Below are positions 1,102 to 64,000 of a stretch of DNA of 64,000 nucleotides, piece by piece. A program made the position numbers and the translations under genes. Numbering within the stretch: position 1 is the stretch's first letter; each line of letters begins with the position of its first letter. The notes under the pieces were generated by a model. The model saw only the letters and a program-made list of their open reading frames with translations. It had not been told where the DNA came from and ran no database searches. Source of the stretch: an uncultured bacterium (GTDB lineage: Bacteria > Armatimonadota > Abditibacteriia > Abditibacteriales > Abditibacteriaceae); assembly GCA_963843795.1 (NCBI GenBank), contig CAWJLW010000006.1, positions 2,802,375-2,866,374 of the forward strand. The letters run 5' to 3'.

Positions 1102-1147
1102 ATTTAAAATTTTTCCTGCAAGTACTTGCAGAGTCGAATCTAGTATT

Positions 1148-2578
1148 ATGAACGAATATACGCGCGAAAAAAAATGTGCTGTCATTGGTTTGGCGCGCGC
1201 TGGTGTGCCAACCGCGCGCTTTTTGGTCGAACGCGGCAATCGCGTGGTCGGCTACGATCACAAAACACGCGAACAATTATCGCCCGAAGCGCTTGATTTG
1301 GAAAATTTGGGCGTTAAGCTGCAACTGGGCGAACACGAATTCGCCGGCATTTTAAGCTGCCATCTTATCGTGCTTTCGCCCGGTGTGCGCATTCATCACG
1401 AACCGTTGGCGAGCGTATTAGAAAAAGCGCGTGCGCGTGGTACGGAAATTATCGGCGAAATGGAACTCGCCGCGCGACATTGTCCGGCTCCGATGATCGC
1501 TGTTACTGGCACCAAAGGCAAAAGCACAACGGTAAAGCTCATTACCGAGTTGTTACAAGCCTGCGGGCAAAGAGCTTTGCGCGCGGGCAACACCGGCACG
1601 CCACTAATCGCAGAATTGCCGCAACTTTCGCCTGAAAGTTGGGCGGTGGTCGAGGTTTCGAGCTTTCAATTTGAACGCGCGCCGACTTTCAAACCTCGCA
1701 TCGCAATTTTGCTCAATTTGCTGCCCGACCATCAGGATTATCACACTTCGCTCGAACAGTATTGGCAAACCAAACTGCGCATTTTCGCGCACCAGAAAAC
1801 TGGCGATACCACAATTTGCAATCTGGATGACGCGCAAACGTTGAGCGCTATCGAAAGCAAGACCATCGGCGGCGACGGCAAATTTCTCGGCGTTTCGGGA
1901 CGCGAACTGCCGCAATTGAATGGCGAGAAAATCGACGGCGCGGGCGTGCACAACAGCATGTTGGGCTGGATCAACGCAGGTGAATGGACGCCATTGATGG
2001 CTAATGAAGAAATTGCCTTGCGCGGCGAGCATAATCGCGCTAATGTCGCGGCGGCTATTTGCGCGCTCATCGCGGCTCTGGGCAGCACGCAAGTACTTGC
2101 CCAACGCGAAACAATTGTAAGAACCATTCGCGAGTTCCAAAGTTTGCCGCATCGACTGGAATTTGTGGCAGAACGGAACGGTGTGCGCTGGATCAACGAT
2201 TCGCAGGCCACAATTCCCGACGCTGCCATCGCCGCATTGAACGCGTTTGAAGCGCCGATTGCGCTCATCGCGGGTGGTAAAAACAAGCTCGATGATCCGA
2301 CAGCTTACGACGCTTTGGGCCGCGCGGTTGCCGAACGTGCCGCGCACTTGTTCTGTATCGGCGAAACCGCGCCGATTTTAGCTCGAGCCGCGCGCGAGGC
2401 GGGCATGAACGAGGAGAAAATCGTTGAAGCGGGCACCTTACAAAATGCAGTGCGCGAGGCGAATGACCGGATGCAAAGCGGCACGGTCGTGATGTCGCCC
2501 GCGTGCGCATCGTTCGATCAATTCAAATCGTTTGAAGATCGCGGCGAGCAGTTCCGGCGCGCGGTTGAGGAATTATAA
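1148..2578 (+). CDS. murD: UDP-N-acetylmuramoyl-L-alanine--D-glutamate ligase
   Basis: GLARAG N-terminus, VTGTKGKSTT P-loop, EVSSFQ, PHRLE, SPACASFDQF..FEDRG; dcw context. Confidence 0.96.
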   Translation: MNEYTREKKCAVIGLARAGVPTARFLVERGNRVVGYDHKTREQLSPEALDLENLGVKLQLGEHEFAGILSCHLIVLSPGVRIHHEPLASVLEKARARGTEIIGEMELAARHCPAPMIAVTGTKGKSTTVKLITELLQACGQRALRAGNTGTPLIAELPQLSPESWAVVEVSSFQFERAPTFKPRIAILLNLLPDHQDYHTSLEQYWQTKLRIFAHQKTGDTTICNLDDAQTLSAIESKTIGGDGKFLGVSGRELPQLNGEKIDGAGVHNSMLGWINAGEWTPLMANEEIALRGEHNRANVAAAICALIAALGSTQVLAQRETIVRTIREFQSLPHRLEFVAERNGVRWINDSQATIPDAAIAALNAFEAPIALIAGGKNKLDDPTAYDALGRAVAERAAHLFCIGETAPILARAAREAGMNEEKIVEAGTLQNAVREANDRMQSGTVVMSPACASFDQFKSFEDRGEQFRRAVEEL

Positions 2579-2720
2579 GGAGCTGCAGATATTTGTATGG
2601 TTTTTGAAATTACCAGGCAGGGACTTGCAGCTTGCCACTTATAATATCGACACTAACAGCTTCATTGTTTTAACATCAAAGCCGATTCATCACAGCCCCC
2701 ATTGCAGCACAGGAGACACC

Positions 2721-4409
2721 ATGCCAACACGCACTTCTCACCCGACAACCTCACGCGCGGCTTCTGAACGCCAGCAGCGCACTACTTCGCCCAACAACGG
2801 CGAAGAATTGTCGCAACTGCGTCGCGGACGTTCGCGACGTTCTTCAGCGCGCGTGCAGGAATTACAGCGCCGCGCCGCGCGTCGTTTGGAAGCACAATCG
2901 CGCGCTGAACAAAGCGACATCGAGTATGCACCGCTGGACGAACACGTTTTCGATAACGTTGTCGATCTCAACGCCGCGCGCCGTGCCCGCCTGGACGCCA
3001 TGCGTCATCCGCGCACGCGTTATGAAGAACGACCTGCTGTGGAACGTTCCACGGAACGTCCATCTCTCGAGCGCAGTCGCAGTGAACGCAGCGGCCTCCA
3101 TTTCGCTCCAGCTTTCGATCTGGATAAGCCAGTGCGAAGCGATAACTTCGCCAGTGGACGCATTGAGCCAGCCGTTCGCAATCTCGAAGCACCTGCAGAG
3201 GAAAGCCAAGCGACGAAGACCAAAGTACGACGCGACGCAGCAACTTCCAATTGCCCACCCTGCCATTGGGGTTTGGCGATTTTGTCGTTGCTATTAACTC
3301 TCGCTTCGATTCCACTGGTTTATTCGGCTTCGACGGCGATTGCTTTAGACCATCATGGTCGGCCCGACTTTTTCCTGGTGCGCCAATTTATGTATGCGGG
3401 CATCGGTGCGGCGGTTTTGGTGCTGGCCTCGCGCTTGTCTTCGCGCAGCCTGCGCTGGACGGTACGCGCGCTTTACGTTGTGACACTCATCGGATTGTTC
3501 GCCACCGACTTTACCCCGCTGGGCCTGGTAATGGGCGGCGTGCGGCGCTGGATGAAAATCGGGCCGATTCAATTGCAGTTTTCCGAATTGGCAAAAATTG
3601 CGCTTTTGGGCATCATGGCCGAATTTTGGAGCCACGCCGGACGTAATGCGCCACGTTCGTTTGGCCCGTGGCTGATGACCGCGCTTCTGTCGATGCCACT
3701 GGTCGCGCTCGTGTTTTTGCAACCGCATTTATCGGCGGCTTCGCTGTTATTTTTGCTGCCATTTTTTGTAGCGTTTTACGCGGGCTGCGCTTGGCAAAAC
3801 ATCGCCAAAATCGCTGCACCACTGTTATTGGGAGCAGTTGTTGTTGTCGCATTGTGCCAGACACACAAGATGCCGTTGCTCAAAGAATATCAACAAGATC
3901 GCATTGCATCGCATTTCAGCGGCGCGGGAGAAGGTAGCGAGGGCGGCAACTACCAGTCGTTACAAGGCCAGCGTGCTTTGATGCGCGGCGGCATTCTAGG
4001 GACGGGGCCGGGCGGTTCGTTGTATAAACAGGGCCATTTGCCCGCGCCGCACACCGACTTTATCTTGGCTGTTATCGGCGAAGAGTGGGGCATGATTGGC
4101 GTACTGAGTTTGTTGGGCGTTTACGGCGTGATGATCTTTTTCTGCTTCCACACCGGCCACAGTTCCAACGACACCTTTGAAGGTTTATTGTGTGCTGGAA
4201 TCGGCACCTTACTGGGCGTGCAGGTAATTTGTAACGTCGGCGTGGTGACGGGCGTTTTGCCAGTCACGGGAATGCCATTGCCTTTGCTGTCGTATGGTGG
4301 TTCGGGCATGATTTGCACACTGCTCGGCTTGGGTTTGGTGCTCAGCGTATCGCGCCGTTACAACTGCGACACGCCCAAAGAATCGCTTCAAGAAGCGATG
4401 GCCGCTTAA
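2721..4409 (+). CDS. ftsW: SEDS family cell division protein FtsW with long Arg/Ser-rich N-terminal extension
   Basis: VYSAS, RRW, QFSELAK, LQPHL, YQSLQ, LPAPHTDFI, LPLLSYGGS motifs; start re-assigned to ATG 2721 behind AGGAG. Confidence 0.92.
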   Translation: MPTRTSHPTTSRAASERQQRTTSPNNGEELSQLRRGRSRRSSARVQELQRRAARRLEAQSRAEQSDIEYAPLDEHVFDNVVDLNAARRARLDAMRHPRTRYEERPAVERSTERPSLERSRSERSGLHFAPAFDLDKPVRSDNFASGRIEPAVRNLEAPAEESQATKTKVRRDAATSNCPPCHWGLAILSLLLTLASIPLVYSASTAIALDHHGRPDFFLVRQFMYAGIGAAVLVLASRLSSRSLRWTVRALYVVTLIGLFATDFTPLGLVMGGVRRWMKIGPIQLQFSELAKIALLGIMAEFWSHAGRNAPRSFGPWLMTALLSMPLVALVFLQPHLSAASLLFLLPFFVAFYAGCAWQNIAKIAAPLLLGAVVVVALCQTHKMPLLKEYQQDRIASHFSGAGEGSEGGNYQSLQGQRALMRGGILGTGPGGSLYKQGHLPAPHTDFILAVIGEEWGMIGVLSLLGVYGVMIFFCFHTGHSSNDTFEGLLCAGIGTLLGVQVICNVGVVTGVLPVTGMPLPLLSYGGSGMICTLLGLGLVLSVSRRYNCDTPKESLQEAMAA

Positions 4410-4430
4410 GATAATCTGCAAGTACTTGCC

Positions 4431-5309
4431 ATGTCATATTCACGCCTCAACGATGGTTCGAACAACGCGCCGCGCGTGCGCTTTCAGCACGCGCTATGGT
4501 CGCTTATCGGTTTGCCGATGAACGCCGAGTCGGATGGTAAAGCGGAATGGACGCTCGACGAAAAATGTGCGCGCGTCAAAGCCGCTGGCTTTGAAAGCCT
4601 CGAATGCTGGCTGAGCGATAAGGACGAAGACGAAGTTTCACACGCGTTGCAACGCCACGATTTGGGCCTTGTGCTCGGCCATCGTCCCTTTTCGGTGGAC
4701 GATACGAAAGCCACGATAAAGCGTGCGCAACGCTTGAATGCAGAATTTATTTTTGCGCAACCGGCTTCGGCGTTCACACCCTTCGAGGACGTCGTACATT
4801 TGGTGACAGAAGGGCGCAAAATGGCCAACGATGCAGGTTTGCATTTCTGGGTCGAAACCCATCGCAATAACTGGACAGAAAATTTGCCGCAAACTCTGCA
4901 GTTAATCGAAGCCATACCCGAGATTCGCTTCACCGCCGATTTATCGCATTTTGTTGTCGTCGGAGAGTTTTACGGCTGGGAGAACGAAGGCGCGATTGAA
5001 CGATTGCGTCCAATTTTGGAACGTTCATCGCACGCGCACGGCCGGATTTCTAACGGCGAACAAGTGCAAGTCGATGTCGGCGATGGCAGCGGACAAACCG
5101 CGCAATTTTTCGTGAGCCTGTGGACGGAAATGCTGCGCGCATGGCGCAAAGAAGCGCAGGCGGGCGATATTTTCCCGTTCGCACCGGAACTCGGCCCGCC
5201 GCGATACGCGATTACCCTACCCGATGGCCGCGAATTTTCTGACCGATGGGAACAAAGTCTGGTCATGAAAAAGTTGTTTGAAAGCGCCTGGCAACGTAGC
5301 GCCGCATGA
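4431..5309 (+). CDS. Sugar phosphate isomerase/epimerase-like TIM-barrel protein
   Basis: AAGFESLE, ETHR, TADLSHF, HAHGRI and PELGPP pattern of the xylose-isomerase-like family. Confidence 0.7.
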   Translation: MSYSRLNDGSNNAPRVRFQHALWSLIGLPMNAESDGKAEWTLDEKCARVKAAGFESLECWLSDKDEDEVSHALQRHDLGLVLGHRPFSVDDTKATIKRAQRLNAEFIFAQPASAFTPFEDVVHLVTEGRKMANDAGLHFWVETHRNNWTENLPQTLQLIEAIPEIRFTADLSHFVVVGEFYGWENEGAIERLRPILERSSHAHGRISNGEQVQVDVGDGSGQTAQFFVSLWTEMLRAWRKEAQAGDIFPFAPELGPPRYAITLPDGREFSDRWEQSLVMKKLFESAWQRSAA

Positions 5310-5419
5310 AAGAAAGAGGAAAGAAAACTCTCGTCTTTTGTAAACTTCCCCGCAAGTACTTGCAGTATCAATTCTTTCCTTAGTTCTTTCCTGCCCCTAA
5401 CATCTCCTCTCTGAATTTT

Positions 5420-6424
5420 ATGCAATATTACATTGGTATTGATGGCGGCGGCACCAACACGCGCGCGGTAATTCTTAGCGATACGCTGGAAGTTATCGGG
5501 CGCGGGCATTCTGGCCCGAGCAATCATTATCGCGTTGGCGCGCCTCAGGCCGCCGAAAACTGTGTGCGCGCTGCCGAAGAAGCATTCGCAGAAGCCAGCC
5601 GCATGGTGCCCGGATTAACGCGCGACGAACTCGCCGCGTGGGGTTTTGGTTTGGCGGGCGTACGTCGCGAAAATGACGCGCGTTTGATGCGCGCGCAGCT
5701 TGGGCCGGTCGCCAATGGTTTGCCGTGGGTTTTAGATACCGACGCCGTCGCTGCGCATCGCGGCGCGTTCGATGGCAAAACCGGACTGGTTTTATCAGTC
5801 GGAACAGGCGCGATTTGCTTGGGTATCGACGACGGCGAAAGTTTCTACGGTGATGGCTGGGGGCCGCTTCTGGGCGACGAAGGCTCTGGTTATTGGATGG
5901 GATTGGAAGCGATTCGCACCGTTTGCCGCGCTCACGATGGTCGCGCGCCGCGCACGGCTCTCACTCAAGCTGTATTAAGCGAACTACGATTGAACGAAGC
6001 GCCACAATTGATTCCGCTGTTACAAGGCGGAAAATTAGAGCCGGAGCGCATCGCTGAATTGGCGCGCATGGTTTTAATCGAAGCCGAAACCGGCGTCAGC
6101 AGCGCAGTCGATATTCGTGAACGCGCTATCGCTTGCTTGTCACTGACCGTTGGCTCGGTCACGCACGCGATGCTTTCGCGCCGCCGCGACCGCGTCGCAC
6201 CCAACGCCGCGCCCAACATCGACTTGAACATCGCGCTGCGCGGCGGCTTGTTCGACGACGACTTTTTCCGCGCCAGCGTCGGTTATGCCATCGGCGAACA
6301 CATGGTCGAAATGAAGCGCGATTTTCTGCCTCTGGGCGCGTGGAACGTGATTCGTCCGCAGTCCGACGCCGCTTACGGTGCTGCACTGATGGCGCGTCAC
6401 GCAGCCGAAAAAGCCGCTGATTAA
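5420..6424 (+). CDS. BadF/BadG/BcrA/BcrD-family sugar kinase (GlcNAc/MurNAc kinase-like)
   Basis: GIDGGGTNT, GLAG, DTDA, VGTGA and GWGPLLGDEGSGYWMG motifs. Confidence 0.85.
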   Translation: MQYYIGIDGGGTNTRAVILSDTLEVIGRGHSGPSNHYRVGAPQAAENCVRAAEEAFAEASRMVPGLTRDELAAWGFGLAGVRRENDARLMRAQLGPVANGLPWVLDTDAVAAHRGAFDGKTGLVLSVGTGAICLGIDDGESFYGDGWGPLLGDEGSGYWMGLEAIRTVCRAHDGRAPRTALTQAVLSELRLNEAPQLIPLLQGGKLEPERIAELARMVLIEAETGVSSAVDIRERAIACLSLTVGSVTHAMLSRRRDRVAPNAAPNIDLNIALRGGLFDDDFFRASVGYAIGEHMVEMKRDFLPLGAWNVIRPQSDAAYGAALMARHAAEKAAD

Positions 6425-6429
6425 CGCTC

Positions 6430-6813
6430 ATGGCCATCGAAAACCGCGAATGTTTTCTGACTAATTGGCGCGACGCCTTGAAATGTCGCGTATGCGGACG
6501 CGGCCCGAATGCGCGCGAAACTTATCATCGCGGCTTTGAATATCATCATCTGCAACACCAAGCGCATGGCGGCCCTGGCATCGTGGAAAATTTGATTCTG
6601 CTGTGTCACGATTGCCACACGCGCCATCATCAAAATCAGCTGCATTTGCCCGATTTCAGCGATGAAGAATTGCAAATCGAAGAATCATTAATCTGCGCGC
6701 AATGCCAAGCGCCCAACGATCCGCGCACGATTGAAATGAACTGCGGCTGGTATCGCTGCGGACAATGCCGACAACGCGTGCATTTGTTCGACCATTTCTG
6801 TTACGAGGATTGA
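6430..6813 (+). CDS. Small HNH endonuclease-like protein with an extra C-terminal Cys4 zinc ribbon
   Basis: CRVC...HH.....GG....NLILLCHDCH..HH core followed by CAQC...CGQC. Confidence 0.8.
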   Translation: MAIENRECFLTNWRDALKCRVCGRGPNARETYHRGFEYHHLQHQAHGGPGIVENLILLCHDCHTRHHQNQLHLPDFSDEELQIEESLICAQCQAPNDPRTIEMNCGWYRCGQCRQRVHLFDHFCYED

Positions 6814-6880
6814 GCAAATGCCACACTTTTGAAATTGAATTTACAATGCCCTGCAAGCACTTGCAGGGCATTCTGAACGA

Positions 6881-6974
6881 CGCGATTATTGTATGTCGGC
6901 GGCAAGCGCGGCTTGGAAGGCGAACTGGTCAAACGCGCGAGCGGGCCGTTTGTCGGCGTGGAAACTGGAAAATT
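6881..6974 (+). pseudogene. Non-coding 94-bp duplicate of the murG 5' coding region (12252-12345)
   Basis: Manual alignment gives 89/94 identical bases, no indels, same strand. Confidence 0.93.
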
Positions 6975-7019
6975 TGTGAATTTATAACAAGAAGTCGATT
7001 TTCTTGCAGAGTTCGTGGT

Positions 7020-8048
7020 TTACGCTATGGCATGAGGAACTTTAGTGACTTTGCAAATTGTACTTAAGAACGCCTCTACAATGGTTGGATCGAACTGAGT
7101 GCCACTTTGTCGTTGAATTTCCGCAACAGCCTGTTCCACTGGCCATGGCCTTTTGTAAGGGCGATCATGAGTTAGTGCATCGAAGACATCGGCAACTGTG
7201 ACGATGCGTCCTACCAAGGGAATATTTTCTCCCGCTAATCCCAACGGGTACCCCTGCCCATCCCACTGTTCATGATGGGTAAGAGCAATTTCTTCTGCCA
7301 GTTGCAGCCAGGGAGAAATGCTGCCAGAAAGCATTTTTGCGCCGATGACGGTGTGTTGCTGCATAATAGCGAACTCCTCGCCAGTTAATTTGCTCTGCTT
7401 GAGCAAAATGTTATCGGGAACTCCAATTTTCCCGATATCGTGCAGCGGTGCCGTGCGCAAAATCAAATCTACCTGGTCTGAAGGCAAGCCCAGCGCTTCC
7501 GCGATTTGTGCCGCCATCGCGCCCACGCGTTTGGTATGTAGACCTGTATCATCATCGCGATACTCAGCAGCCAGCGCCAGACGCTGCAATGTTTCTAACT
7601 GCGCTGTTTGCAAATCTATCGTGCGCTCTCTGACTTTGGTTTCTAATGAGAGATGAGAAAAACGGGTTTCCAAAAGATTTTGGATGCGCAATAGTACTTC
7701 CGTTTCATCGAGCGGTTTGGTCAGAAAATCTTTTGCACCTGCTTTCAAGGCTTCGTGCCGGGTTGCTAAAGTAACATCAGCCGTGAGAACCAAAATAGGA
7801 ACCAAGTAATCAGTAAGTTCCAGTCGCAGCTGTTGCATAACGCCAAACCCATCCAAGTGCGGCATCGATAAATCTAACAACACAATGTCAGGTTGAATGC
7901 TGCGAAAAAGCGCGAGTGACTGGCGAGAATCGATAGTACTATAAACGTTGTCATAGCCAGCTTGTTGAAGAATCATCTCCAACAAACGCACATTGGCTTT
8001 TTCGTCGTCAACAATGAGGACTTTGCCTTGGAGAATGGTATCTGACAT
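7020..8048 (-). CDS. Response regulator with REC + HD-GYP domain (putative cyclic di-GMP phosphodiesterase, RpfG-like)
   Basis: LIVDD / LLDLSMP / KP receiver motifs; [27 protein letters not shown]; start overlaps the kinase stop (TGATG). Confidence 0.95.
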
Positions 8049-54112: not shown

Positions 54113-54156
54113 ACGACAAAAAGGCGCTGCAAGTACTTGCAGCGCCTTTTTGTCGT
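54113..54156. terminator. Perfect 44-bp inverted repeat centred on the iterated palindrome
   Basis: ACGACAAAAAGGCGCTGCAAGT|ACTTGCAGCGCCTTTTTGTCGT, 5 bp from the deacetylase stop. Confidence 0.8.
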
Positions 54157-54161
54157 AATTT

Positions 54162-55100: not shown

Positions 55101-55323
55101 TTTTGCTCTTTTCGCATGAGATTATCGAGCTTGACCATTGCCATTATACGAATTCGATAGCAGTTTCAGGGCGATTTCAACAGTTTATCAAGACAAAACC
55201 AAAGTTTTCCTGAGAATTTGCCCATAGAAAACGCGAATTATCCCATAGCGCGCAATTATGGATATAAACTGAGTGTGTGGTTCGCAGAATAAGCAGCGGA
55301 ACCAACGATTGAGGAGTGGAAGG

Positions 55324-55911
55324 ATGCGCTGGACACGCAAAGGAATTTTGGCCGAAATCAAACGATTACAGCAAGCCGGAGCCGAACTTAATTACGCTTC
55401 GGCTTCGGATAATCATTTGAATCTGGTGCGCGCCGCGTGCTGGCACTTCGGTTCGTGGGAGCACGCCATCGAAAAAGCTGGCTTGAATTACGACGAAGTG
55501 TCACGCTATCAGCGCTGGACGCGCGAGCGTATTATTGCGCGCATCGGCGAATTGCACGCTCAGGGCCACGATCTCAGTTGGCGCGCCGTCTCGACGCGCC
55601 TCGATCCCGCGCTCGCCGCGGCGGCCTTGCGCCCGCACCATTTTCAAAGCTGGCGCGAAGCCATCAGTGCGGCTGGCCTCGATATTGATTCCATCGCGCG
55701 CTACCGTCACTGGAACGAGGTGCGCGTGTGCGAAGAAATTCGCGCGCTGCACGAAGCGGGCGAACCATTATCTTCCAAAATTTTGCAAGAAAATAATCAG
55801 GCGCTCTTTTGCGCCGCGCGCCGCCGTTTCGGTTCGTGGGATAACGCCTTGCAAGCCGCTGGCATCGACGCCGATACCATTCGCATCCGGCGCGCGAAAA
55901 ATAGTTCGTAA
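55324..55911 (+). CDS. Three-repeat helical protein (homing-endonuclease-associated-repeat-like), possible DNA-binding protein
   Basis: Three ~64-aa units RW....I..EI..L...G..L.......L..AA...FGSW..A...AG; GAGGAG RBS. Confidence 0.65.
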   Translation: MRWTRKGILAEIKRLQQAGAELNYASASDNHLNLVRAACWHFGSWEHAIEKAGLNYDEVSRYQRWTRERIIARIGELHAQGHDLSWRAVSTRLDPALAAAALRPHHFQSWREAISAAGLDIDSIARYRHWNEVRVCEEIRALHEAGEPLSSKILQENNQALFCAARRRFGSWDNALQAAGIDADTIRIRRAKNSS

Positions 55912-56010
55912 AAAACTCATAAAAACAAGTTTTGAAACGCATTTCGCGAAGATTGCTGTTGCAAGTACTTGCAGGGCACGAAAACGCTAAACTGCGTGTC
56001 TCAACTTCTT

Positions 56011-56847
56011 ATGAAAATCATTGTCGCGCACTCGCCCGATTCGGACGACGCATTCATGCATTACGCTCTCGCCAAAAATCTCATTGATACTGGCGACCTA
56101 GAATTCGATCACGTCCTGAAAGACATTCAAACTTTGAACGAGGAAGCCCATAAAGGCACCTACGAAGTCACCGCGATTTCAACGCACGCTTTTGCCTACG
56201 TTTCCGATAAATACGCACTTTTGCCGCACGGCGCTTCGATGGGCGAAAATTATGGCCCGATGATCGTCGCGCGCGAGCCTTTTTCACATCAGGATATTCA
56301 AGGGCGCACCATCGGCGTGCCGGGCTTAATGACTTCGGCTTATCTCGCGCTGAAATTGTGGGCGCCTGAGATCAAAACTGAAGTAATGCCGTTTGACGAA
56401 ATTCTGCCCGCTGTGGTCGATGGACGACTCGATGCCGGCCTGTTAATTCACGAAGGCCAATTGACTTTCGGCGATTTCGATTTACACGAAATCGTGAATT
56501 TGGGCGTGTGGTGGGCGCAGCAAACCGATGGTTTGCCCTTGCCGCTGGGTTCAAACGCGATTCGGCGCGATCTGGGACCGGAAATCATGACGCGCGTGTC
56601 GCACATTTTGCGCGATAGCATCGCTTACGCCTTGAATCATCGCGAAGAAGCCTTAGATTACGCGCTGGAATTTGCGCGCGATATGGAAGAGCGCCGCCAC
56701 CTGGCCGACGAGTTTGTCGGAATGTATGTTAATCAGCGTACGCTGGATTACGGCGAAGATGGACGACGCAGTGTGGAACTGTTTCTGCAACGCGGCGTGC
56801 AGCAAGGTTTAATTCCCAAACAAGTTCACGTCGATTTTGTCGATTAA
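56011..56847 (+). CDS. mqnD: 1,4-dihydroxy-6-naphthoate synthase (futalosine menaquinone pathway)
   Basis: AHSPDSDDAFMHYAL, DIQTLN, YGP, LIHEGQL, PLPLG and MYVN. Confidence 0.88.
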   Translation: MKIIVAHSPDSDDAFMHYALAKNLIDTGDLEFDHVLKDIQTLNEEAHKGTYEVTAISTHAFAYVSDKYALLPHGASMGENYGPMIVAREPFSHQDIQGRTIGVPGLMTSAYLALKLWAPEIKTEVMPFDEILPAVVDGRLDAGLLIHEGQLTFGDFDLHEIVNLGVWWAQQTDGLPLPLGSNAIRRDLGPEIMTRVSHILRDSIAYALNHREEALDYALEFARDMEERRHLADEFVGMYVNQRTLDYGEDGRRSVELFLQRGVQQGLIPKQVHVDFVD

Positions 56848-56933
56848 AACGGCGCGGCAAATACTTTATATCATCAAATACTTGATGCAAGTACTTGCCA
56901 AGCGAATTTAGGCGCGCACGAGGAGAAAATTTT

Positions 56934-57701
56934 ATGGCACGGGTTGGAGTTTTGTTGTCGGGCTGTGGCTATCAGGATGGTAGCGAAGTTTACGAAGCAG
57001 TTCTGACGCTTCTGGCTTTGGAAAAGGCCGGGGCGCAAGTGCAAGCGATGGCACCCGACATCGCGCAGGCCGAAGTCGTCGATCATTACCGCGGCGAAGA
57101 AGATCGTAACGCAACCAATCGTGAAACCAACGGCCATTCGCGCAACGTGTTAGCTGAATCGGCGCGCATCGTGCGCGGCAAAATTATCGCGGCGGGTGAA
57201 GTTTCTGCTCACGAACTCGACGCGTTAATTATCATTGGCGGCTGGGGCGCAGTAAAAAACCTGTGTTCGTTTTACAGCGATGGAGCCAAAGCCAAAGTCA
57301 ATCCCGCTGTCGCCCGATTGATTCGCGAAGTGCATGGTCTAGGCAAGCCGATTGGCGCAATGTGCGCTGGTCCGATTCTGGTCGCCGTCGCGCTCAATGA
57401 TGTCAAGCTCGACTATCCGCTTTCGCTGACCATCGGCAACGATGCAGAAACGATCATTCAACTCAAAGCGATGGGTGTTGAAGCTGTCGTCGCGGGTGTG
57501 GATGAAATCCATACCGATACTGCCAACCATCTCATCACGACGCCCGCTTTCATGCTGGCCAAAACCGCCGGACAAGCCGAAGCTGGAATCAACGCGCTGG
57601 TTGCGCGCGTGATGGAAATGACGCGCGAAATTAGCTATAAGATGCCCGCGGGCGGCAAAGGCAACGCGGTTCCCGGCGTCACGCCGGATTTGGGGCTGTA
57701 A
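56934..57701 (+). CDS. elbB: ElbB-like glyoxalase (DJ-1/PfpI superfamily)
   Basis: LSGCGYQDGSEVYEAV, RNVLAESARIVRG, GGWGAVKNL, MCAGP and TTPAFM; AGGAG RBS. Confidence 0.88.
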   Translation: MARVGVLLSGCGYQDGSEVYEAVLTLLALEKAGAQVQAMAPDIAQAEVVDHYRGEEDRNATNRETNGHSRNVLAESARIVRGKIIAAGEVSAHELDALIIIGGWGAVKNLCSFYSDGAKAKVNPAVARLIREVHGLGKPIGAMCAGPILVAVALNDVKLDYPLSLTIGNDAETIIQLKAMGVEAVVAGVDEIHTDTANHLITTPAFMLAKTAGQAEAGINALVARVMEMTREISYKMPAGGKGNAVPGVTPDLGL

Positions 57702-57756
57702 ATTTATCTCAATCAAGCGCTGCAAGTACTTGCAGCGCTTGATTTGTGTTGGAATT

Positions 57757-58089
57757 ATGCAATTTGCAATTGATCTCAATTACTTGCCGCAAACTGAAGG
57801 CGAAGCGGTACGCGTCACCGAAGGCGAACACGACATCGCGATTTTTCGCATCGGCGAAAGCTGGCGTGCTATCGGCAACGAATGTCCCCATCAGGGCGCG
57901 TCACTATGCGATGGCTGGATTGACGATGGCGTGGTCGCGTGTCCGCTGCATGCGTGGCAATTTAGCACGAAAACCGGCGAATGTTTGAGCGTTCCCAACC
58001 TCAGCGTTCCGGTCTACCAGATCGTTATTCAGGACGAACAAGCCCTGATTCAGCAAATCGAAACTCCTGAATCATCGAGCGAACAGTGA
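57757..58089 (+). CDS. Rieske [2Fe-2S] ferredoxin
   Basis: CPH...CPLH motif. Confidence 0.92.
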   Translation: MQFAIDLNYLPQTEGEAVRVTEGEHDIAIFRIGESWRAIGNECPHQGASLCDGWIDDGVVACPLHAWQFSTKTGECLSVPNLSVPVYQIVIQDEQALIQQIETPESSSEQ

Positions 58090-58090
58090 A

Positions 58091-58480
58091 ATGGCACAAG
58101 TTAAAATCTACGGCGTGCGCAGTGAATTGAATGCCATTAAAAGCCAGCTTTCCGAAATCATCCAAGCGTGCTTGGTGGACGCCCTGCAAATTCCGCCCAA
58201 CAAACGTTTCCAACGTTTTTTCGCCCTTGAACCGGAAGATTTTTGGTTTCCCAACGACCGCAGCGCGCGCTACACCATCATTGAAATCTCGATGTTTGAA
58301 GGCCGCAGCATTACGGCGAAAAAACAACTGATTCGCTTGCTTTATGAGCGCACACAAAGCGAATTGAATTTGGAGGCCAACGATTTGGAAATCACGATTT
58401 TTGAAACGCCGCGCTGCAACTGGGGCATTCGCGGTCAGAACGGCGATGAAATCGGCTTGAATTATTCGGTTATCGTGTGA
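58091..58480 (+). CDS. Tautomerase superfamily protein
   Basis: KRFQRF, IEISMFEGRS...KK.L and NWGIRG; begins MAQ, so no Pro1. Confidence 0.8.
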   Translation: MAQVKIYGVRSELNAIKSQLSEIIQACLVDALQIPPNKRFQRFFALEPEDFWFPNDRSARYTIIEISMFEGRSITAKKQLIRLLYERTQSELNLEANDLEITIFETPRCNWGIRGQNGDEIGLNYSVIV

Positions 58481-58491
58481 AATGAACCTAA

Positions 58492-58529
58492 GAAAAAGCG
58501 CGCTGCAAGTACTTGCAGCGCGCTTTTTC
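58492..58529. terminator. Perfect 38-bp inverted repeat centred on the iterated palindrome between convergent genes
   Basis: GAAAAAGCGCGCTGCAAGT|ACTTGCAGCGCGCTTTTTC. Confidence 0.82.
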
Positions 58530-58561
58530 GTTTTGTGAAAATGTTATATCTACCAGCAGCA

Positions 58562-61500
58562 TTATTTCCAGTTGCCAATAAGAATGAAAGGCGCCCAAAA
58601 ATAAGGATGAGCAAAAGGTGCCTGCGGATCGGCTTTGAATTCGGGTTGTGAGCTGGCAGCACCGACATCTCCACCACCGAAGCGGGCGCCGCGCTGGGTG
58701 GCAGTTTCCGAAGTTTTGGCTTCGCCATGAAGCAACGCCATCTGTGCCAAGCGTAATGCTTCGGCTTTGGACGTTCCGGGCTGTGCTTCGCGGATGCGAT
58801 AAAAGTGGCGCATCAACAATTGCGTGCTTTCATCGGCGACCGGCCACAAACTGGCCATCACGGCTTTGGCGCCTTTGCGCTGCGCTACTACACCAAAACC
58901 TTCGACTTCGCGCCCATCGCCGCCAACACTCCCGGTTGCCGTGTTGCAGGCCGACAGGGTCAACAATTCGACGTTGCGAAAAAAGTTGGGAATGGCTTTG
59001 ATCTGCGATAAAGATAGATGACTGCCATCGCCCAGCAATAGAAAAGAATCGGCTTCGTTGCCGGGCACAAATTGAAAATGGCTGGCGATGTGAACTACCG
59101 AAAAACCCTGACCCAAATCATTTTTCATCGCAGCGGCAGTGAAAGCCTCATCCAAAGCCACTTTGCCCGGCAACACGCCTTTGTCTTGCGCAACCGCTTC
59201 ACTGCGTTTTACTTCAGCTTTGTTATCATCGGCTTTACCGATGATGCCGTGCAATTCTTCGACAACTCCGGGCAAAGCGCTAAAACCACTTTGCGCTTTG
59301 GAAACGCCCAATCCCAGCGCTGTCCAGTGCGCAGTTGGCTCGGCTTCCAAATTAAGTTGACTGGCGGGCGTAAAAACGACATTGCGAAAGCGTTCGGCGA
59401 GGTAAGCCTTGCCATCATAAAGCGCGCTCACCGGCAGGTAGCGGAGAGCGCCGTCCAAACTCCACATCAGCGTTTTTGCACCAGCGCCTGCCAAATCTTT
59501 GGCGATGGGCGCGATGAGAATTTCATATAATTCGTGTCCCAACGGGCGCGGATCGCGCGTCGGGTCTTGCAACACGGCGCGAAAAGCGGCGATTTTGGCG
59601 TTCAGTTCGGCAGCCGGAATCGCGTATTCTGCGGCCTTCTGAGTTTCGGCAGTGAAAAGAATGACGCGGTATTTATCTTCGCTAACCAGCGTGTACAAGG
59701 CGACGGTACCATCACCCATTTGATGTAGCGCTTGCATCATCACTTCCGAGTCTTGCAATTGGCGCAGTGTGGTGTTGGCAGCCGGTGCGTTGTCGGCTTC
59801 TTGGGCTAAAGTGTCAAGCAATTTTTGGAACGCTTGACCCGCCACTGCCAAATCATCATCAAGACTGACTAAATGCGCTTCTTCGTCAGGAGAGCGCGGG
59901 GTTTTGGCAGCTAATTGACCGCGTTCGACACCCAGAGCAGTAATTTTTTCGCTGATTTGGTCGTAGCGCTTTTCCCACGCGGACTCGTCTGGCGTTAAAG
60001 AAGCGCGAGTCGCAGTGGTGGCTTCGTTGCGGTCGCGCTGTACGAAGTCGAAGAATTCTTCTTGTTTCAGCATTCCCAGCACTTGCTGAGCTTCGGGTAA
60101 ACGACCTTGCTCGATTAGCAAATCAGCCAGCCAACGATAAATATTCGCGTTGCTTTTGAGAAAACCTTTCTGGGTTTCGCGGTCGAAACCGGTAAGAGAA
60201 GCCCGCGTTTGCTGCAAATTGTTAATCGCCTGTTTTCCGTAGAAGATTGCCAGACGCGACTGATTGGAAGCGCGCGCGATCAGCATCAAAATCGCTAAAA
60301 CATCGGCTTCGGCGCCACGACTTTTGATCTGTCGTGAAATAGCCAATGATTGTCCAGCTTCGTCGGCTGCTACCCCGATTTGACCGCCCAGCAAATGTCC
60401 CATGCTGAGCAATTTCAAACTTTGACTTTCGCCCCACACGTCGCCAATCGAGTGATCAATTTCTAACGCCTGCTGTCCATACTGCACGGCCTGAACAGGA
60501 TTTTTCAGCAAGACATCCATGCCGAGGCTGACCAAAACGGCAGCTTCGGTGCGTCGATCCTTATTGCGACGCGCCAAATCTAACGCCTGCGACGAAATTT
60601 CGTGAGCTTTATCGAGCTGATTCAAGCCGCGATAGGCGTATCCCAGCGCATCCAGCAGTCCTTGCTGGTTCACCGAAAATTCTTGCGCCCGCGAAATTTG
60701 CAGGGCTTGCTCCAAGAAAGGTAACGCTTTTTCGTGGCGACCCAGCGCGACATACGTTGCGCCCAGATTGGCCAGCGCCATCGCTTCACCTTGTTTATCA
60801 GCGTTTTGGCGACTTAGTGCCACTGCTTGCTCAAAGTAAGGCGCGGCTTTATCGGGGCGCCCCAACGATTGATAAGCGATGCCCAGATTACCGATCATCG
60901 TGCCTTCAACGTTATTCAAGCTATCGCGTGTTTCACCTGCGTAACTGGTGGCTAAAACTGCGGCTATCGCGCTTTGGAGCGGCTGGCCTCTGGTGGCGCG
61001 CGCGGCCATCAAAGCTTGCTCGGAGAATTGAATAGTTTGTTCGAAGTGGCTTTGTGCCAGATGCGATGAACCTAATGCTCCCAAAATCCACGCTTCGCCC
61101 AACGCGTCATGAGTGGCGCGCGCTAATGGCAGCGCGGCTTGCAGAGCGGTTTCGGCTTTGTCGTAGCGATTCACGGCCTGATAAGCCGTTCCCATCGCCA
61201 GTAACATAGCCGCTTCACTGCTGCGGTCTTTCAAACGCTGGTAGATTTGTTGGGCCTGCTGCCAATAATTGATGGCTTTTTCGGTTTGGCCCAGCAGATT
61301 TAAGCCCTGCCCCAGTTTGTTCAATTCATCAGCAGCGCTGGCGGGCCGCAAGGCTCGGTCGATAACTAAGGCAGCTTCGGCGTGTTCAAGCGCCGTTTCA
61401 TATTTTTGCTCTTTGAACCATAAAGCTAACGCCCAATTGAATTGCACATCGGCCAAAGCAATTTTGAGCGGCTTCTGCGCTTCAACTTCACCATTTTGTT

Positions 61501-61717
61501 GTAGCGCGCCGTTCAGCAATTGCACCGCTTCAGCGAACTGCTCGCGCTGCATCAAACCTTGCGCACGTTGAACGATATTGTCATTCTTTTGGGGTGCGCC
61601 TTGAGGCAATCCAACGCCAGAATTTTGCGGAGATGGCGGACGGGCATCTTGAGCTTGCAATACGGATACGCTCGACATCAAACACAACGCCAATAGAGAA
61701 GAAAATTTGCGCATCAT
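58562..61717 (-). CDS. Secreted TPR + CHAT (caspase-like protease) domain protein
   Basis: Signal peptide; TPR repeats; DGALRYLP, VHIASH, LSACNT, ASLWPVAD and HPYFWAPF. Confidence 0.93.
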   Translation of the reverse strand: MMRKFSSLLALCLMSSVSVLQAQDARPPSPQNSGVGLPQGAPQKNDNIVQRAQGLMQREQFAEAVQLLNGALQQNGEVEAQKPLKIALADVQFNWALALWFKEQKYETALEHAEAALVIDRALRPASAADELNKLGQGLNLLGQTEKAINYWQQAQQIYQRLKDRSSEAAMLLAMGTAYQAVNRYDKAETALQAALPLARATHDALGEAWILGALGSSHLAQSHFEQTIQFSEQALMAARATRGQPLQSAIAAVLATSYAGETRDSLNNVEGTMIGNLGIAYQSLGRPDKAAPYFEQAVALSRQNADKQGEAMALANLGATYVALGRHEKALPFLEQALQISRAQEFSVNQQGLLDALGYAYRGLNQLDKAHEISSQALDLARRNKDRRTEAAVLVSLGMDVLLKNPVQAVQYGQQALEIDHSIGDVWGESQSLKLLSMGHLLGGQIGVAADEAGQSLAISRQIKSRGAEADVLAILMLIARASNQSRLAIFYGKQAINNLQQTRASLTGFDRETQKGFLKSNANIYRWLADLLIEQGRLPEAQQVLGMLKQEEFFDFVQRDRNEATTATRASLTPDESAWEKRYDQISEKITALGVERGQLAAKTPRSPDEEAHLVSLDDDLAVAGQAFQKLLDTLAQEADNAPAANTTLRQLQDSEVMMQALHQMGDGTVALYTLVSEDKYRVILFTAETQKAAEYAIPAAELNAKIAAFRAVLQDPTRDPRPLGHELYEILIAPIAKDLAGAGAKTLMWSLDGALRYLPVSALYDGKAYLAERFRNVVFTPASQLNLEAEPTAHWTALGLGVSKAQSGFSALPGVVEELHGIIGKADDNKAEVKRSEAVAQDKGVLPGKVALDEAFTAAAMKNDLGQGFSVVHIASHFQFVPGNEADSFLLLGDGSHLSLSQIKAIPNFFRNVELLTLSACNTATGSVGGDGREVEGFGVVAQRKGAKAVMASLWPVADESTQLLMRHFYRIREAQPGTSKAEALRLAQMALLHGEAKTSETATQRGARFGGGDVGAASSQPEFKADPQAPFAHPYFWAPFILIGNWK

Positions 61718-61821
61718 AATTGCCCCTGCTTCAAGCTCTCAATTTAGCAAGATTTCAATTCATTATGATAGCACGATTACGTGGCATTCGAGCAATTCAA
61801 CAAAAGATGTACGTCTGGCTT

Positions 61822-62760
61822 TTAAGCATTCATCAGCAGACCCGCGCCACTTTCCAACAACTGCCGCGCGGCTTTTTGGCCGATAATCTGTGCGCCATCT
61901 GCCAAGGCGCCCGCAACTTCTGCGCTTAATTTTTGGCTGCCGTCGGGCGCTAAAACGACCGCGTGCAAGGTGCAAATTTCGCCTTTTACTTGCGCATATG
62001 CGCCCAAGGGCGTCGAGCAACCGGCTTGCAACGCTTCCATGCAGGCGCGTTCGGTTTCGACACAAAAGCGCGCGCTTTCATTTTCCAACCCTGCAAGTAC
62101 TTGCAGCACATTTTGATCGTCGCAGCGCGCTTCCAAAGCCAGCGCGCCCTGTCCGGGCGCGGGCACGAAATTTTGGCAATTGAAATCAAAATGCTGATGT
62201 TGCGATAAATCAATGCCAAGCCGGTTCAAGCCCGCGCGCGCCAGCAGAATCGCATCGAAACTTTCATCCAATTTGCGTAATCGAGTGTCGATGTTGCCAC
62301 GCACAGAAGAAACTTTTAAGTCGGGGCGCTGATATTTCAATTGTGCCGCGCGGCGCAAACTCGAAGTGCCTACGCGCGCACTGTGCGGCAATTGCGACCA
62401 TACAGTTTCGTTTTCCCGATCGTCCAAATCGCGGCGCAAAATGCAAGCATCGGCAGGATTTTCGCGACCGGGCACGCACGCCAGACACAAATTTTCGGGG
62501 AAAAGCGGTGGCAAATCTTTCAGGGAATGGACGGCAAAATCAATCTCGCCACTTAAAAGCGCTTGCTCGATTTCTAGCGTAAAAACGCCTTTTCCGCCAA
62601 TTTCCGGCAGGGGTTGTCCTTGCTGCTTATCGCCCGTGGTGCGAATGATAATTTCTTCGATCCGCAAATCGGGTGTCAACTGTTCCAATGCGCGTGCGGT
62701 CTGCCGAGCCTGCGCCAAAGCCAAGGCGCTGCCCCGTGTACCCATTTTCAAGATCGTCAT
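61822..62760 (-). CDS. hemC: Hydroxymethylbilane synthase
   Basis: GTRGSALA, GGKGVFT, AVHSLKD, GTSSLRR, RGNIDTR and PAPGQG. Confidence 0.97.
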   Translation of the reverse strand: MTILKMGTRGSALALAQARQTARALEQLTPDLRIEEIIIRTTGDKQQGQPLPEIGGKGVFTLEIEQALLSGEIDFAVHSLKDLPPLFPENLCLACVPGRENPADACILRRDLDDRENETVWSQLPHSARVGTSSLRRAAQLKYQRPDLKVSSVRGNIDTRLRKLDESFDAILLARAGLNRLGIDLSQHQHFDFNCQNFVPAPGQGALALEARCDDQNVLQVLAGLENESARFCVETERACMEALQAGCSTPLGAYAQVKGEICTLHAVVLAPDGSQKLSAEVAGALADGAQIIGQKAARQLLESGAGLLMNA

Positions 62761-62775
62761 ATTTATTTTGAGAAT

Positions 62776-63639
62776 TTACTGTCCGATGAGATGTGGCGCA
62801 CCCAGAAACGAAATCACCATCAGCAAAAAGCCATAAACGACGACTAAATTGGTGCGACGCCCGCGCCAGCCCAGCCACCAGCGCGCCACCAGATAAAGGG
62901 CAAAAGTTGCCCAGGTGAGGCCAGAAAATAACACTTTCGGGTCGCTCCATACCCGATATTGCGCCTGATGACGTACTTGCCACACGACGCCTAAAAACAA
63001 ACCCAGCGTTAAAAGCGCCAAACCGAACGCCGTGGCGCGATAAATCACATCGTCGGCGACTTGCAGCGAAGGCAGGCGCTGCCACAAACCGCGCAGTTGC
63101 TTGCGTTTCAATAAATGATCTTGAATCAGATAAATCAAACTCGCCGCAAAAGCGAACGCCAAAGCAACATAACCGGCCACGATCAAGACGACGTGAACTA
63201 CTAACCATTGCGTTTCCAATCCGCTCGGATTGGGCGCGTAGCGATGAAGGGGCGCAGCGGTAAGCGAATATAACGCCGCCAAAAGTGCGACCGGTGTGAC
63301 GAACGCGCCCAAAGTGGTTTGCCCGACGCGTTGCCGCCAGCCCAGATACGCCACGATAAGAGCGCAGCCAAAAACGCCAGCGACGCCCGCTTTTTCGCGC
63401 CACAACAATGCACCTTGCCCGAACATCGCCAATGTGTGTAAATTGGCCCCACAAAACAAAAGCGCAAGGGAACCGATTTCAACGATTTCGTGCCACGCGC
63501 GGCCATGTTCGCGCGGCTCATCCGAGCGTAAAAACAAATGCGCCCATAACAAAAGCATTGCCACAAAATAGCACGCGACCGCGCCCAAAAGTAGCACGCC
63601 TTCCCACGCGGCCAATGCATTGGGAGCACCATTTCTCAT
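62776..63639 (-). CDS. Cytochrome c assembly family membrane protein (CcsA/HemX-like)
   Basis: Multi-TM; WLVVH, LPSL, W.DPK and GWRGRR; between hemA and hemC; ATGA overlap with the hemA stop. Confidence 0.88.
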   Translation of the reverse strand: MRNGAPNALAAWEGVLLLGAVACYFVAMLLLWAHLFLRSDEPREHGRAWHEIVEIGSLALLFCGANLHTLAMFGQGALLWREKAGVAGVFGCALIVAYLGWRQRVGQTTLGAFVTPVALLAALYSLTAAPLHRYAPNPSGLETQWLVVHVVLIVAGYVALAFAFAASLIYLIQDHLLKRKQLRGLWQRLPSLQVADDVIYRATAFGLALLTLGLFLGVVWQVRHQAQYRVWSDPKVLFSGLTWATFALYLVARWWLGWRGRRTNLVVVYGFLLMVISFLGAPHLIGQ

Positions 63640-64000
63640 CGTGCCCCCTCGGGAGCAACCGATTGAGTTGCGCTGCTTTCTTTTTCGTTTTTGGGCGCGC
63701 TGCAAGTACTTGCAGCGCTGTTTGGGAAGGTTTCTAAATCGAAAGCGCGGCGCAAAGCTTCGACATCTTCGGGCTGCGAATCGGCGGCTTCGCGCAAATG
63801 ACGCAGCGGTGCGTGCATCAATTTTCCGCTCACCGAACGCGCCAGAGCGCGCACGATTTGCTGATCGCGCGGTGACAAATGTTGCAACTGTGCTAGCGCG
63901 ATCTCGGTTTCGCGGTCGCGCACTTCATTGGCGTGACGCGCCAAAGCTGACAAAACTGGCTGCGCGCCGCGACCTTTTATCCACTGTGCCCAGCTACGCG
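63636..64000 (-). CDS. hemA: Glutamyl-tRNA reductase, C-terminal part (truncated by window edge)
   Basis: Dimerisation-domain pattern E.E.AL..L....KLMHAP...LR; hemA-X-C order. Confidence 0.8.
   Translation of the reverse strand, partial: RSWAQWIKGRGAQPVLSALARHANEVRDRETEIALAQLQHLSPRDQQIVRALARSVSGKLMHAPLRHLREAADSQPEDVEALRRAFDLETFPNSAASTCSAPKNEKESSATQSVAPEGAR

Follow-up and report, generated by a model that had tools for sequence, protein, structure and literature searches.

An iterated AGTACT-centred palindrome with helically phased flanks in Abditibacteriaceae, a candidate uptake tag on a putative orphaned methylation site

The 12-bp palindrome GCAAGTACTTGC is iterated through the genome of an uncultured bacterium of the family Abditibacteriaceae (GCA_963843795.1, here G000), where it came to attention in a 64,000-nucleotide stretch of contig CAWJLW010000006.1 (positions 2,802,375 to 2,866,374, hereafter the window). 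It is a selected or driven duplex-DNA element, conserved in position, evenly spread, equipped with bendable flanks and confined to lineages free of a particular nuclease. The motif is real and by its defining sequence features lies outside the cyanobacterial highly iterated palindromes (HIP1), the DNA uptake sequences and uptake signal sequences (DUS and USS), the repetitive extragenic palindromes (REP) and the miniature inverted-repeat transposable elements (MITE); as far as sequence can tell, it would work like HIP1 or a USS. The reading that we favour, and to which we give an even chance, is that it serves as an uptake or self-recognition tag for natural transformation, which arose on an orphaned GTAC methylation site and was spread through biased uptake of DNA. 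Most likely GCAAGTACTTGC is the core of a duplex tag of about 90 bp, with an invariant AGTACT centre, species-specific palindromic flanks and A/T tracts some 15, 25, 36 and 46 bp away on both sides.

The initial annotation of the window had listed 41 exact copies and proposed a lineage-specific signal of the HIP1 or DUS kind, unlike a regulon. Our recount returned the same 41 copies, from 1118 to 63702-63713, 23 of them in the 14-mer form TGCAAGTACTTGCA with T/A ends (Table 1). A genome-wide count against a Markov background, as the annotation had suggested, gave 2,567 copies in G000 (4.30 Mb, 11 contigs, 92% complete) where 0.32 (order 2) or 0.65 (order 3) are expected; orders 5-6 are unusable as background because the motif itself contaminates them. 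Copies lie on 11/11 contigs, so that the enrichment is not confined to the window, and these counts together with the relatives described below bear out the proposed signal. The pattern read backwards has 0 occurrences in G000. The placement of G000 in the family is in keeping with a core gene whose best-named homologues come from Abditibacterium utsteinense and Abditibacteriaceae. On the 3.6-Mb contig each full 100-kb bin after the first holds 47-83 copies, the first bin 30, and the overall density is 0.6 per kb for the 12-mer and 0.75 per kb for AGTACT. Beyond the core the consensus continues as CT-core-AG (C 68%, T 66%). One-mismatch variants number 506, and mismatch variants as a class share the phased A/T flanks of the exact copies. 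Seven of the near-copies named in the initial annotation carry one or two mismatches; the one at 44709 has an extra central base and is probably a true copy with an assembly error.

This 13-bp form bears on whether the motif could itself be a sequencing or assembly artefact. There are 66 examples in G000, other insertion forms reaching at most 13; all 11 scorable coding examples shift the reading frame, other assemblies, with 1,154 core matches, have 0 such forms, and a contig from a public soil run lacks the extra base at window position 44715. It is probably a motif-specific sequencing or assembly error, and some one-mismatch variants may be errors as well. On the strength of the frameshifts and the soil-run contig we rejected the alternative that this GTWAC form reflects the spacer tolerance of a dimer. 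The error type gives no methylation read-out either, as plain GTAC shows no excess of it (5.3 per 1,000 versus 4.1-7.7 for 11 other words). While these insertions and some hundreds of apparent frameshifts in the assembly would fit an artefact, 429 of the 436 scorable coding copies of the 12-mer keep the frame, the same or related dialects recur in independent genomes and metagenome assemblies, and orthologous sites are conserved. The in-frame copies and independent assemblies refute for the 12-mer the artefact of which the initial annotation had warned, and we leave it next to no probability. Public contigs over window 43000-62500 were short, 8 of 72 being among the matches listed, and do not amount to a copy-by-copy check; no RNA data set was among the matches listed.

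Placement was analysed with our own gene calls (3,498 genes, 86% coding). The 2,562 copies that could be classed, out of 2,567, divide into 1,804 intergenic and 758 coding ones, a 14-fold difference in density; in the window fresh calls gave 30 and 11 where the initial annotation had 29 and 12, within the uncertainty of start codons. Copies peak 6-30 nt downstream of stop codons. Among 2,613 spacers of at least 50 bp, 1,292 hold one copy, 171 several and 1,150 none, as against 645 single-copy spacers expected under a length-proportional Poisson model, and whichever way the flanking genes are oriented (tandem, convergent or divergent) a spacer has about an even chance of a copy, nearly independent of its length. 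Coding copies, 499 of which share one frame reading xQVLA, avoid intergenic ones (11 within 100 bp versus 26 expected) and fill gaps, leaving 70 gaps above 4 kb where 300 simulations gave 113 +/- 6. Counts per 20-kb bin have a mean of 12.9, a variance of 5.3 and a variance/mean of 0.41, and long-range power is about 0.45 versus about 0.8-0.9 in a gene-end control. A simple periodogram, not the method of PMC5861425, showed no dominant kb-scale period (top power 5.8) and suppressed long-range variance.

The motif is sparse in mobile-looking contigs and in islands of insertion sequences and restriction-modification genes. Two motif-free stretches of 26 kb on the large contig, one adjoining a tRNA, carry many transposase-like and restriction-modification-like genes (labels read from translations), and 32 kb of contig C3 without the motif hold a putative contractile-injection-like cluster. 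We note separately the extent of that cluster (C3:2634-27317, labels again read from translations); the end of the large contig (C6:3599000-3623414), with VirB-like genes and foreign codon use, which is either a mobile element or contamination; and window 7020-11569, within a motif-free 5-kb stretch, where an HD-GYP response regulator lies beside a putative amino-acid-permease/HAMP/PAS histidine kinase fusion.

The surroundings of the core are organised, as seen in genome-wide averages rather than copy by copy. Measured from the axis, A+T content around non-hairpin copies (2,860 flanks) peaks at 15 (70%), 25-27 (59%), 36-37 (56%) and 46 bp (54%) and dips at 8-11, 20, 31 and 41 bp. The periodicity of AA/TT/AT is strongest at 10.5 bp; in deep coding copies its amplitude is 2.28 versus 0.08 at random coding positions, and it is also present in non-hairpin spacer copies and in divergent-spacer copies; the flank profile of the controls, other GTAC sites and TTGCAA in G000, is flat. 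The two sides show no correlation in coding copies and a weak anticorrelation in spacers. Where neighbouring copies lie 16-66 bp apart, they are helically in phase (99 pairs, R 0.52; 0/2,000 jittered sets as high), and those 67-130 bp apart are not (61 pairs). A/T phasing recurs in the related genomes G009, G001 and G012, is weak in GC-rich metagenome relatives and forms no clear-cut pattern for the motif of G006 or for CAGCCACG, described below; for a helical-phase test, G009, G001 and the metagenome set offer too few close pairs. The next most frequent GTAC-centred perfect 12-mer palindrome has 11 copies, so that both arms must be read as sequence, and the next filling of GCAA-NNNN-TTGC after GTAC has 23.

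A/T tracts at half-integral turns from an axis are the register of DNA wrapped on a protein whose centre lies at that axis, as in the nucleosome. Phased flanks on both sides would accordingly mark the work of a DNA-bending protein with a symmetric mode of reading. This geometry is at the heart of an alternative in which the palindrome is a chromosome-architecture site, bound by an abundant nucleoid or topology protein that wraps about 90 bp and occupies one site per gene boundary. Of the readings considered it fits the two-sided wrap best; the two-sided phasing with nearly independent sides, the in-phase neighbours and the even spacing all argue for it, and a nucleoid role has been proposed for HIP1 (PMC5861425, in part). 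On the other hand, the histone folds PF00808 and PF09123 were each found in 0/5 genomes searched with working controls, HU is single-copy and unremarkable in AGTACT iterators, motif-free G017 has the same HU as its iterating congeners, and an HU alignment (9 of 20 loci recovered, none from G000) revealed nothing specific to iterators. The lack of a dominant kb-scale period and the 21 of 27 relatives that do without the AGTACT tag also count against it, and the turnover of dialects at thousands of sites demands a drive mechanism that is absent from the model. We regard architecture as the main rival, less likely than an uptake tag. A codon-bias search for an abundant small reader protein was discarded when it drifted to foreign genes.

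Part of the copies have been extended into hairpins. Perfect arms of at least 8 bp occur in 489 of the 1,804 non-coding copies (median fold energy -25 kcal/mol), namely in 183/293 convergent, 283/1,243 tandem and 23/268 divergent ones, and 278 different 9-nt arms are found among 475 long copies. Because of this convergent-spacer bias and the differing local arms, the long-arm copies look like terminators built on the core, and judging from sequence about one fifth of all copies would double as intrinsic terminators. The predicted RNA of the palindrome at 58492..58529 has a 17-bp stem and a GUAC loop (-30 kcal/mol, z -5.6), and in the sister genome G001 a palindrome in its own dialect also follows sucC.

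Could the motif act mainly as RNA, through a GUAC-loop hairpin that terminates transcription or helps to process mRNA 3' ends? The peak past stop codons, the long hairpins of convergent copies and the strong folds point that way, but the stems lack the covariation that such an element would show (2,567 copies of one palindrome against 11 of the next), 237/476 divergent spacers and 758 coding positions hold the motif, and 10.5-bp phasing is a property of duplex DNA; this makes a primary RNA role very improbable. We think even less of a remnant of a REP, a MITE or another repeat spread by a transposase. The motif is palindromic, mostly intergenic and often near stops, some 12-mers are duplicated in tandem, and G000 has one gene for a RAYT-like transposase; yet that gene has unrelated GTAG-type REPs of its own, the arms differ between copies, and flanking duplications of 3, 5 and 9 bp are not in excess beyond small numbers, an excess at even lengths being presumably due to self-complementary arms. 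Moreover, coding copies align mostly without gaps and no empty site with a clean insertion was seen. The RAYT-like tyrosine transposase gene itself (751962-752357 in C6:751650-752460) is seemingly 5'-broken and surrounded by five GTAG-type REPs, with one copy of the motif beyond them.

Exact GCAAGTACTTGC occurs only 0-3 times in each of 40/40 relatives in GTDB. AGTACT, by comparison, is present in 2,813-4,733 copies in six of 27 family genomes (G000, G001, G009, G012, G015, G019) and in 1-285 copies in the other 21, and it is iterated in 0/110 genomes from other families of the phylum. Around it the flanks form dialects, CAAAGTACTTTG in G001, TCGAGTACTCGA in G009, G015 and G019, the looser GAGTACTC in G012 and NCAAGTACTTGN in metagenome contigs that share about 70% identity with G000 (80 of 117 loci used). 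Four further family genomes iterate other motifs at equal density, three of them non-palindromic: G006 has 3,173 copies of GTACGGTCG, mainly in inverted pairs, and G007, G016 and G018 have about 2,700-3,500 copies each of CAGCCACG, which is GTAC-free and non-palindromic.

Compared with orthologues (best hits, at least 50% identity), coding copies are mostly gap-free and sit at poorly conserved positions, with an amino-acid identity of 0.30-0.45 versus 0.63; the copy at 13177, for instance, aligns without gaps to the relatives' orthologues, that is, it arose by substitution. Where the residues of both proteins allow AGTACT, to which the test was limited, a relative has AGTACT at 12/19 G000 motif positions versus 31/443 non-motif positions (p 3e-9). 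The corresponding figures are 25/32 versus 44/439 for metagenome relatives and 0/4 versus 1/279 for relatives without AGTACT iteration. A dialect switch alters the encoded residues, SKYLQ versus NEYSN. As orthologous positions are kept while flanks differ, the sites must be old and their flanks rewritten.

Several observations on dialects stand apart. G000 holds 11 copies of the G001 dialect CAAAGTACTTTG on C2, C4, C5, C6 and C9, 10 of them coding, which may be relics or imports. In G006 (L028, L029, L068) AAGTACGGTCGA occurs in inverted pairs and is one letter off the Haemophilus USS core AAGTGCGGT, by coincidence or convergence. The flanks of CAGCCACG are species-specific (L014, L015, L020, L021, L060, L075, L076); the word could be an uptake word or a Chi-like one, and we take its reverse strand in G016 to resemble Chi. 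Seven phage- or satellite-like contigs unmatched in G000 (L169, L182, L149, L150, L153, L160, L193), two with tape-measure or primase genes, carry the exact G000 dialect roughly once per kb and show the first phased tract; chosen because each has a copy, they hold 29 copies in 31 kb, 14 of which lie within one 9.6-kb locus. A search of IMG/VR for the 16-mer found 6 loci, each with a single 12-mer, which is the chance level.

The distribution of the iterated motif can be set beside that of a methyltransferase and its partner. G000 has a single match to the N6/N4 methyltransferase families, a 256-aa DPPY protein (C6:2517365-2518135), with orthologues in 21/27 family genomes and 0/4 other genomes of the class; an orphan copy is present in 7/7 GTAC iterators. 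In G020, G017 and G003 the gene adjoins, or lies one gene from, that of a nuclease-like protein of 215-240 aa. This partner is recognised by a PADLOC model for type II restriction enzymes (E 3e-8) and its predicted fold (predicted local distance difference test 90.5) resembles restriction nucleases (best Z 7.2, to MutH and NhoI; Foldseek E 0.008), middling matches that would indicate the fold class only. In 72 loci with the nuclease from other bacteria, Verrucomicrobiota with few exceptions, no 4-mer is more depleted than GTAC (observed/expected, O/E, 0.11), which is the lowest 4-bp palindrome in 58/66 such loci above 9 kb; in 80 viral loci with a homologue its O/E is 0.25 and it is lowest in 32/61. 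These sets include kin and duplicates and consist of nuclease carriers. Given this avoidance we take GTAC as the target of the nuclease, and through the nuclease as the probable specificity of the methyltransferase, which would mark GTAC; matches in PDB, plasmids, phages, NCBIfam and PADLOC gave no readable specificity.

We found the nuclease in 13/27 family genomes, split in two of them; 11 of the 13 have at most 21 AGTACT sites and 0/13 iterate a GTAC motif. It was not found in G001, G006, G009, G012 and G019 (63-95% complete), has no homologue in G000 (best E 0.45) and is reduced in G015 to two decayed fragments adjoining the methyltransferase, whereas G017, a congener of five iterators, possesses it and shows no iteration. 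A GTAC motif is iterated by 7/9 genomes that have the methyltransferase without an intact nuclease and by 0 of the remaining 18, at a nominal p of 4e-5 that treats kin as independent, the methyltransferase tree being too open for counting origins. Profiles of PabI-type (PF09522) and ScaI-type (PF09569) nucleases hit 0/5 genomes, a result that carries no information because their positive controls were silent too.

The partner belongs to an unnamed GTAC-associated restriction-fold family (L078:2414-3061, P0121; homologues L239-L248 and L329-L408). By a crude rule 92/120 homologues have a hydrophobic N-terminal extension, and within the flanks examined 0/72 non-family bacterial nuclease loci contain a homologue of the partner methyltransferase; in those bacteria the nuclease is possibly exported, the host being kept safe by having nearly no GTAC. 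Distant homologues occur in cyanophages and giant-virus-like contigs (L249-L328; H56-H83), where GTAC is avoided too, and a few of them adjoin a methyltransferase homologue. A HARE-HTH + Mrr_cat nuclease gene lies beside the methyltransferase in three GTAC-poor genomes (L071:4790-5584, L072:579-1376, L077:1026-1892), and an Mrr-like gene adjoins it in G014, G005 and G041. Two other families of the phylum (G035, G052, G065, G077; G089, G101, G112, G121, G129) are nearly devoid of AGTACT, with 1-40 copies, and may have this GTAC nuclease too.

An orphan methyltransferase in every GTAC iterator is also what an Elhai-type repair ratchet would call for, in which hemimethylated GTAC within a longer sequence context is recognised by a nicking protein that biases repair toward mutations that create the motif, until it saturates near one site per kb. 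Density and even spacing match the saturation of that model (PMC4390886 section 3.4, in part), MutS and MutL are present in G000, and copies arise by substitution. Phased flanks, in-phase neighbours and the 14-fold intergenic bias are not, however, expected from the ratchet, the GTAC nuclease has no homologue in G000 that could act as nicking reader, and some 3,400 GTAC sites outside AAGTACTT already suffice for such a density, which leaves it improbable.

How does the motif compare with known systems? Like HIP1, it is a palindrome found roughly once per kb and centred on a putative 4-bp methyltransferase site. The genome has an orphan methyltransferase of probable GTAC specificity, lineages vary the flanks around an unchanged core, and positions are conserved between genomes beyond codon constraint, here at amino-acid-compatible positions; the 0.6 per kb of the 12-mer falls in the range of about 0.5-2.5 per kb reported for HIPs (PMC4390886, in part). 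In contrast to HIP1 (GCGATCGC, cyanobacteria), it belongs to another phylum and has a GTAC core, which is in none of the HIPs of PMC4390886 section 2.3 (in part), and a length of 12-16 bp rather than 5-8; neither GCGATCGC nor a GATC or CGATCG core is involved, GATC being depleted in G000 (O/E 0.47). It also differs in being strongly intergenic, with phased A/T flanks, terminator co-option and a tie to the loss of a specific nuclease. The simple periodogram gave no dominant 10-90-kb period.

The USS of Pasteurellaceae consists of the core AAGTGCGGT and two helically phased T-tracts (PMC3458573, in part). Our element shares with it the core with phased A/T tracts, the density of about one per kb, the tolerance in genes and the use in terminators, but the USS is non-palindromic with one-sided tracts and makes terminators from pairs, whereas here a single palindromic copy is the hairpin axis and tracts reach about 46 bp on both sides. 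The DUS of Neisseriaceae are non-palindromic words with species dialects and a pilin receptor, ComP, of which we identified no counterpart in G000. Species-level dialects around a conserved core and terminator co-option are common to both, while the DUS is non-palindromic and not known to have phased flanks or a methylation site. The core word differs from both DUS and USS, and scarcity in recently acquired DNA is shared with them. So is the competence machinery: G000 has comEA and comEC by Pfam, and sequence signatures together with our reading of the translations indicate dprA and a type IV pilus cluster.

The initial annotation had also considered the end of a described MITE or REP family. 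The motif resembles REPs in being an extragenic palindrome near stop codons, but has no GTAG foot, flanking RAYT gene or shared arms, is 30% coding and was made by substitution; for a MITE, shared arms and a duplication signal are equally missing. KOPS, Chi, matS and parS are strand-polar or confined to a region of the chromosome, unlike this perfect palindrome with even density along the 3.6-Mb contig. A full-text search, with supplements, subscription journals and REBASE outside its scope, returned no paper with the 12-mer, and literature listings on over-represented AGTACT, orphan methyltransferases for GTAC, repeats in Abditibacteria and surveys of uptake sequences contained no description of the motif.

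Table 1. Positions of the palindrome and associated features in the window.
Feature	Position	Strand	Remark
Exact GCAAGTACTTGC, starts, copies 1-14	1118, 2089, 4418, 5352, 12044, 12094, 13177, 13346, 15163, 15980, 16674, 18083, 18702, 20236	no strand	
Exact GCAAGTACTTGC, starts, copies 15-28	21014, 22819, 25373, 26958, 30878, 32059, 32121, 34772, 34898, 36401, 39279, 39309, 43215, 44723	no strand	
Exact GCAAGTACTTGC, starts, copies 29-41	47549, 48360, 49562, 50171, 52939, 53988, 54129, 55961, 56887, 57722, 58505, 62093, 63702	no strand	
Near-copies, one mismatch	6853, 22945, 28022, 37873, 44053, 50838		Last ends at 50849
Near-copy, two mismatches	44040		
13-bp form	44709..44721		Extra central base
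Pair of copies 50 bp apart	12044..12105		Helically in phase; divergent spacer
Pair of copies 30 bp apart	39279..39320		Helically in phase
Perfect 42-bp palindrome, copy on axis	22804..22845		Terminator-like; convergent spacer; arm extension 15 bp
Perfect 32-bp palindrome with copy	32049..32080		Partner copy at 32121, 62 bp off (six helical turns)
40-bp palindrome with copy	43201..43240		Terminator-like; downstream of response-regulator gene
30-bp palindrome with copy	47540..47569		Terminator-like
32-bp palindrome with copy	48350..48381		Immediately downstream of sucC stop
34-bp palindrome with copy	50160..50193		Terminator-like
44-bp palindrome with copy	54113..54156		Bidirectional, terminator-like
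34-bp palindrome with copy	57711..57744		
38-bp palindrome with copy	58492..58529		Bidirectional, terminator-like; between convergent genes
Coding copy in murG-like gene	13177..13188	+	Reads VQVLA; gene name read from translation
Further coding copies	2089, 15163, 15980, 20236, 34772, 34898, 36401, 52939, 62093		By gene calls; span 2089..62104
Coding status dependent on start codon	53988, 63702		

We favour drive by biased uptake because it accounts together for saturated coverage, the dearth of copies in new DNA, the wholesale change of dialect and the co-option into terminators, because the USS shares the design of a core with phased tracts, because three relatives iterate non-palindromic words at equal density, and because methylated HIP1 raises transformation (10.1101/2024.09.10.611283; PMC13756078, in part), HIP1 methyltransferases lying below the correlation threshold in the latter. 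Molecular drive would, furthermore, rewrite thousands of sites more easily than site-by-site selection. Uptake, nucleoid and repair roles need not exclude each other and may coexist.

A number of points weigh against an uptake tag on a methylated GTAC. No uptake receptor was found in G000, and competence machinery does not predict the motif, since comEA and comEC also occur in G005, which showed no iterated motif, and in G007, whose motif is GTAC-free. Known DUS and USS are non-palindromic; 70% of our copies are intergenic, versus about a third for the USS (PMC3458573, in part); and the phasing, two-sided and reaching about 46 bp, is nearer to chromatin wrapping than to one-sided USS tracts. 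The methyltransferase is also found in 14 genomes without an iterated GTAC motif, G007 has it as an orphan, G004 likewise has an orphan and no motif was seen in 40 kb of that genome, and in G015 it reads EPPY. As the seven iterators fall in two genera, the correlation with nuclease loss represents few independent events. Finally, the initial annotation had guessed that GTAC is a methyltransferase target, for which the pattern of nuclease and methyltransferase offers indirect support, yet mismatches inside GTAC are no rarer than at the adjoining core positions.

If the motif is indeed an uptake tag, the following course can be envisaged. The family would once have had a GTAC restriction-modification pair, and nuclease-bearing lineages would have purged GTAC. 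Some lineages then appear to have dropped the nuclease and retained the methyltransferase, as the correlation and one gene remnant suggest. A receptor may have come to favour a GTAC-centred, probably methylated palindrome in a bendable context, and biased uptake with recombination would have placed the tag in the cheapest positions, one per spacer and, within long gaps, at codons that tolerate it, with coverage levelling off near one per 1-1.7 kb. As lineages diverged, old sites were rewritten into new dialects, and judging by sequence about a fifth were co-opted as intrinsic terminators. We put forward more tentatively, as possible rather than probable, that self-recognition switched from negative to positive on GTAC: an ancestor would have exported a GTAC nuclease and purged GTAC, and lineages that lost the nuclease but kept the methyltransferase would have made methylated GTAC the core of species-specific, DNA-wrapping uptake tags, which their phages would have adopted as well.

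Beyond the initial annotation, the element has gained phased A/T flanks, dialects, a link to the loss of a GTAC nuclease and a fifth of copies that resemble terminator hairpins. Few lineages are known to iterate a word genome-wide about once per kb, and where HIP1 comes from and what it does have been open questions for three decades. The Abditibacteriaceae display gain, loss and dialect change among close relatives, with an apparent precondition, nuclease loss with the methyltransferase kept, and the phased bendable flanks join HIP-like and USS-like features. The origin and reader of such words therefore become comparable within one genus, and the element can be used as bait in pull-downs. 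Adding the methylated tag is predicted to aid the delivery of DNA into these hard-to-grow soil bacteria. Should the switch on GTAC prove true, a restriction site would have given rise to a system of uptake sequences in a phylum new to them, with both end states and a decayed intermediate to be seen within one genus.

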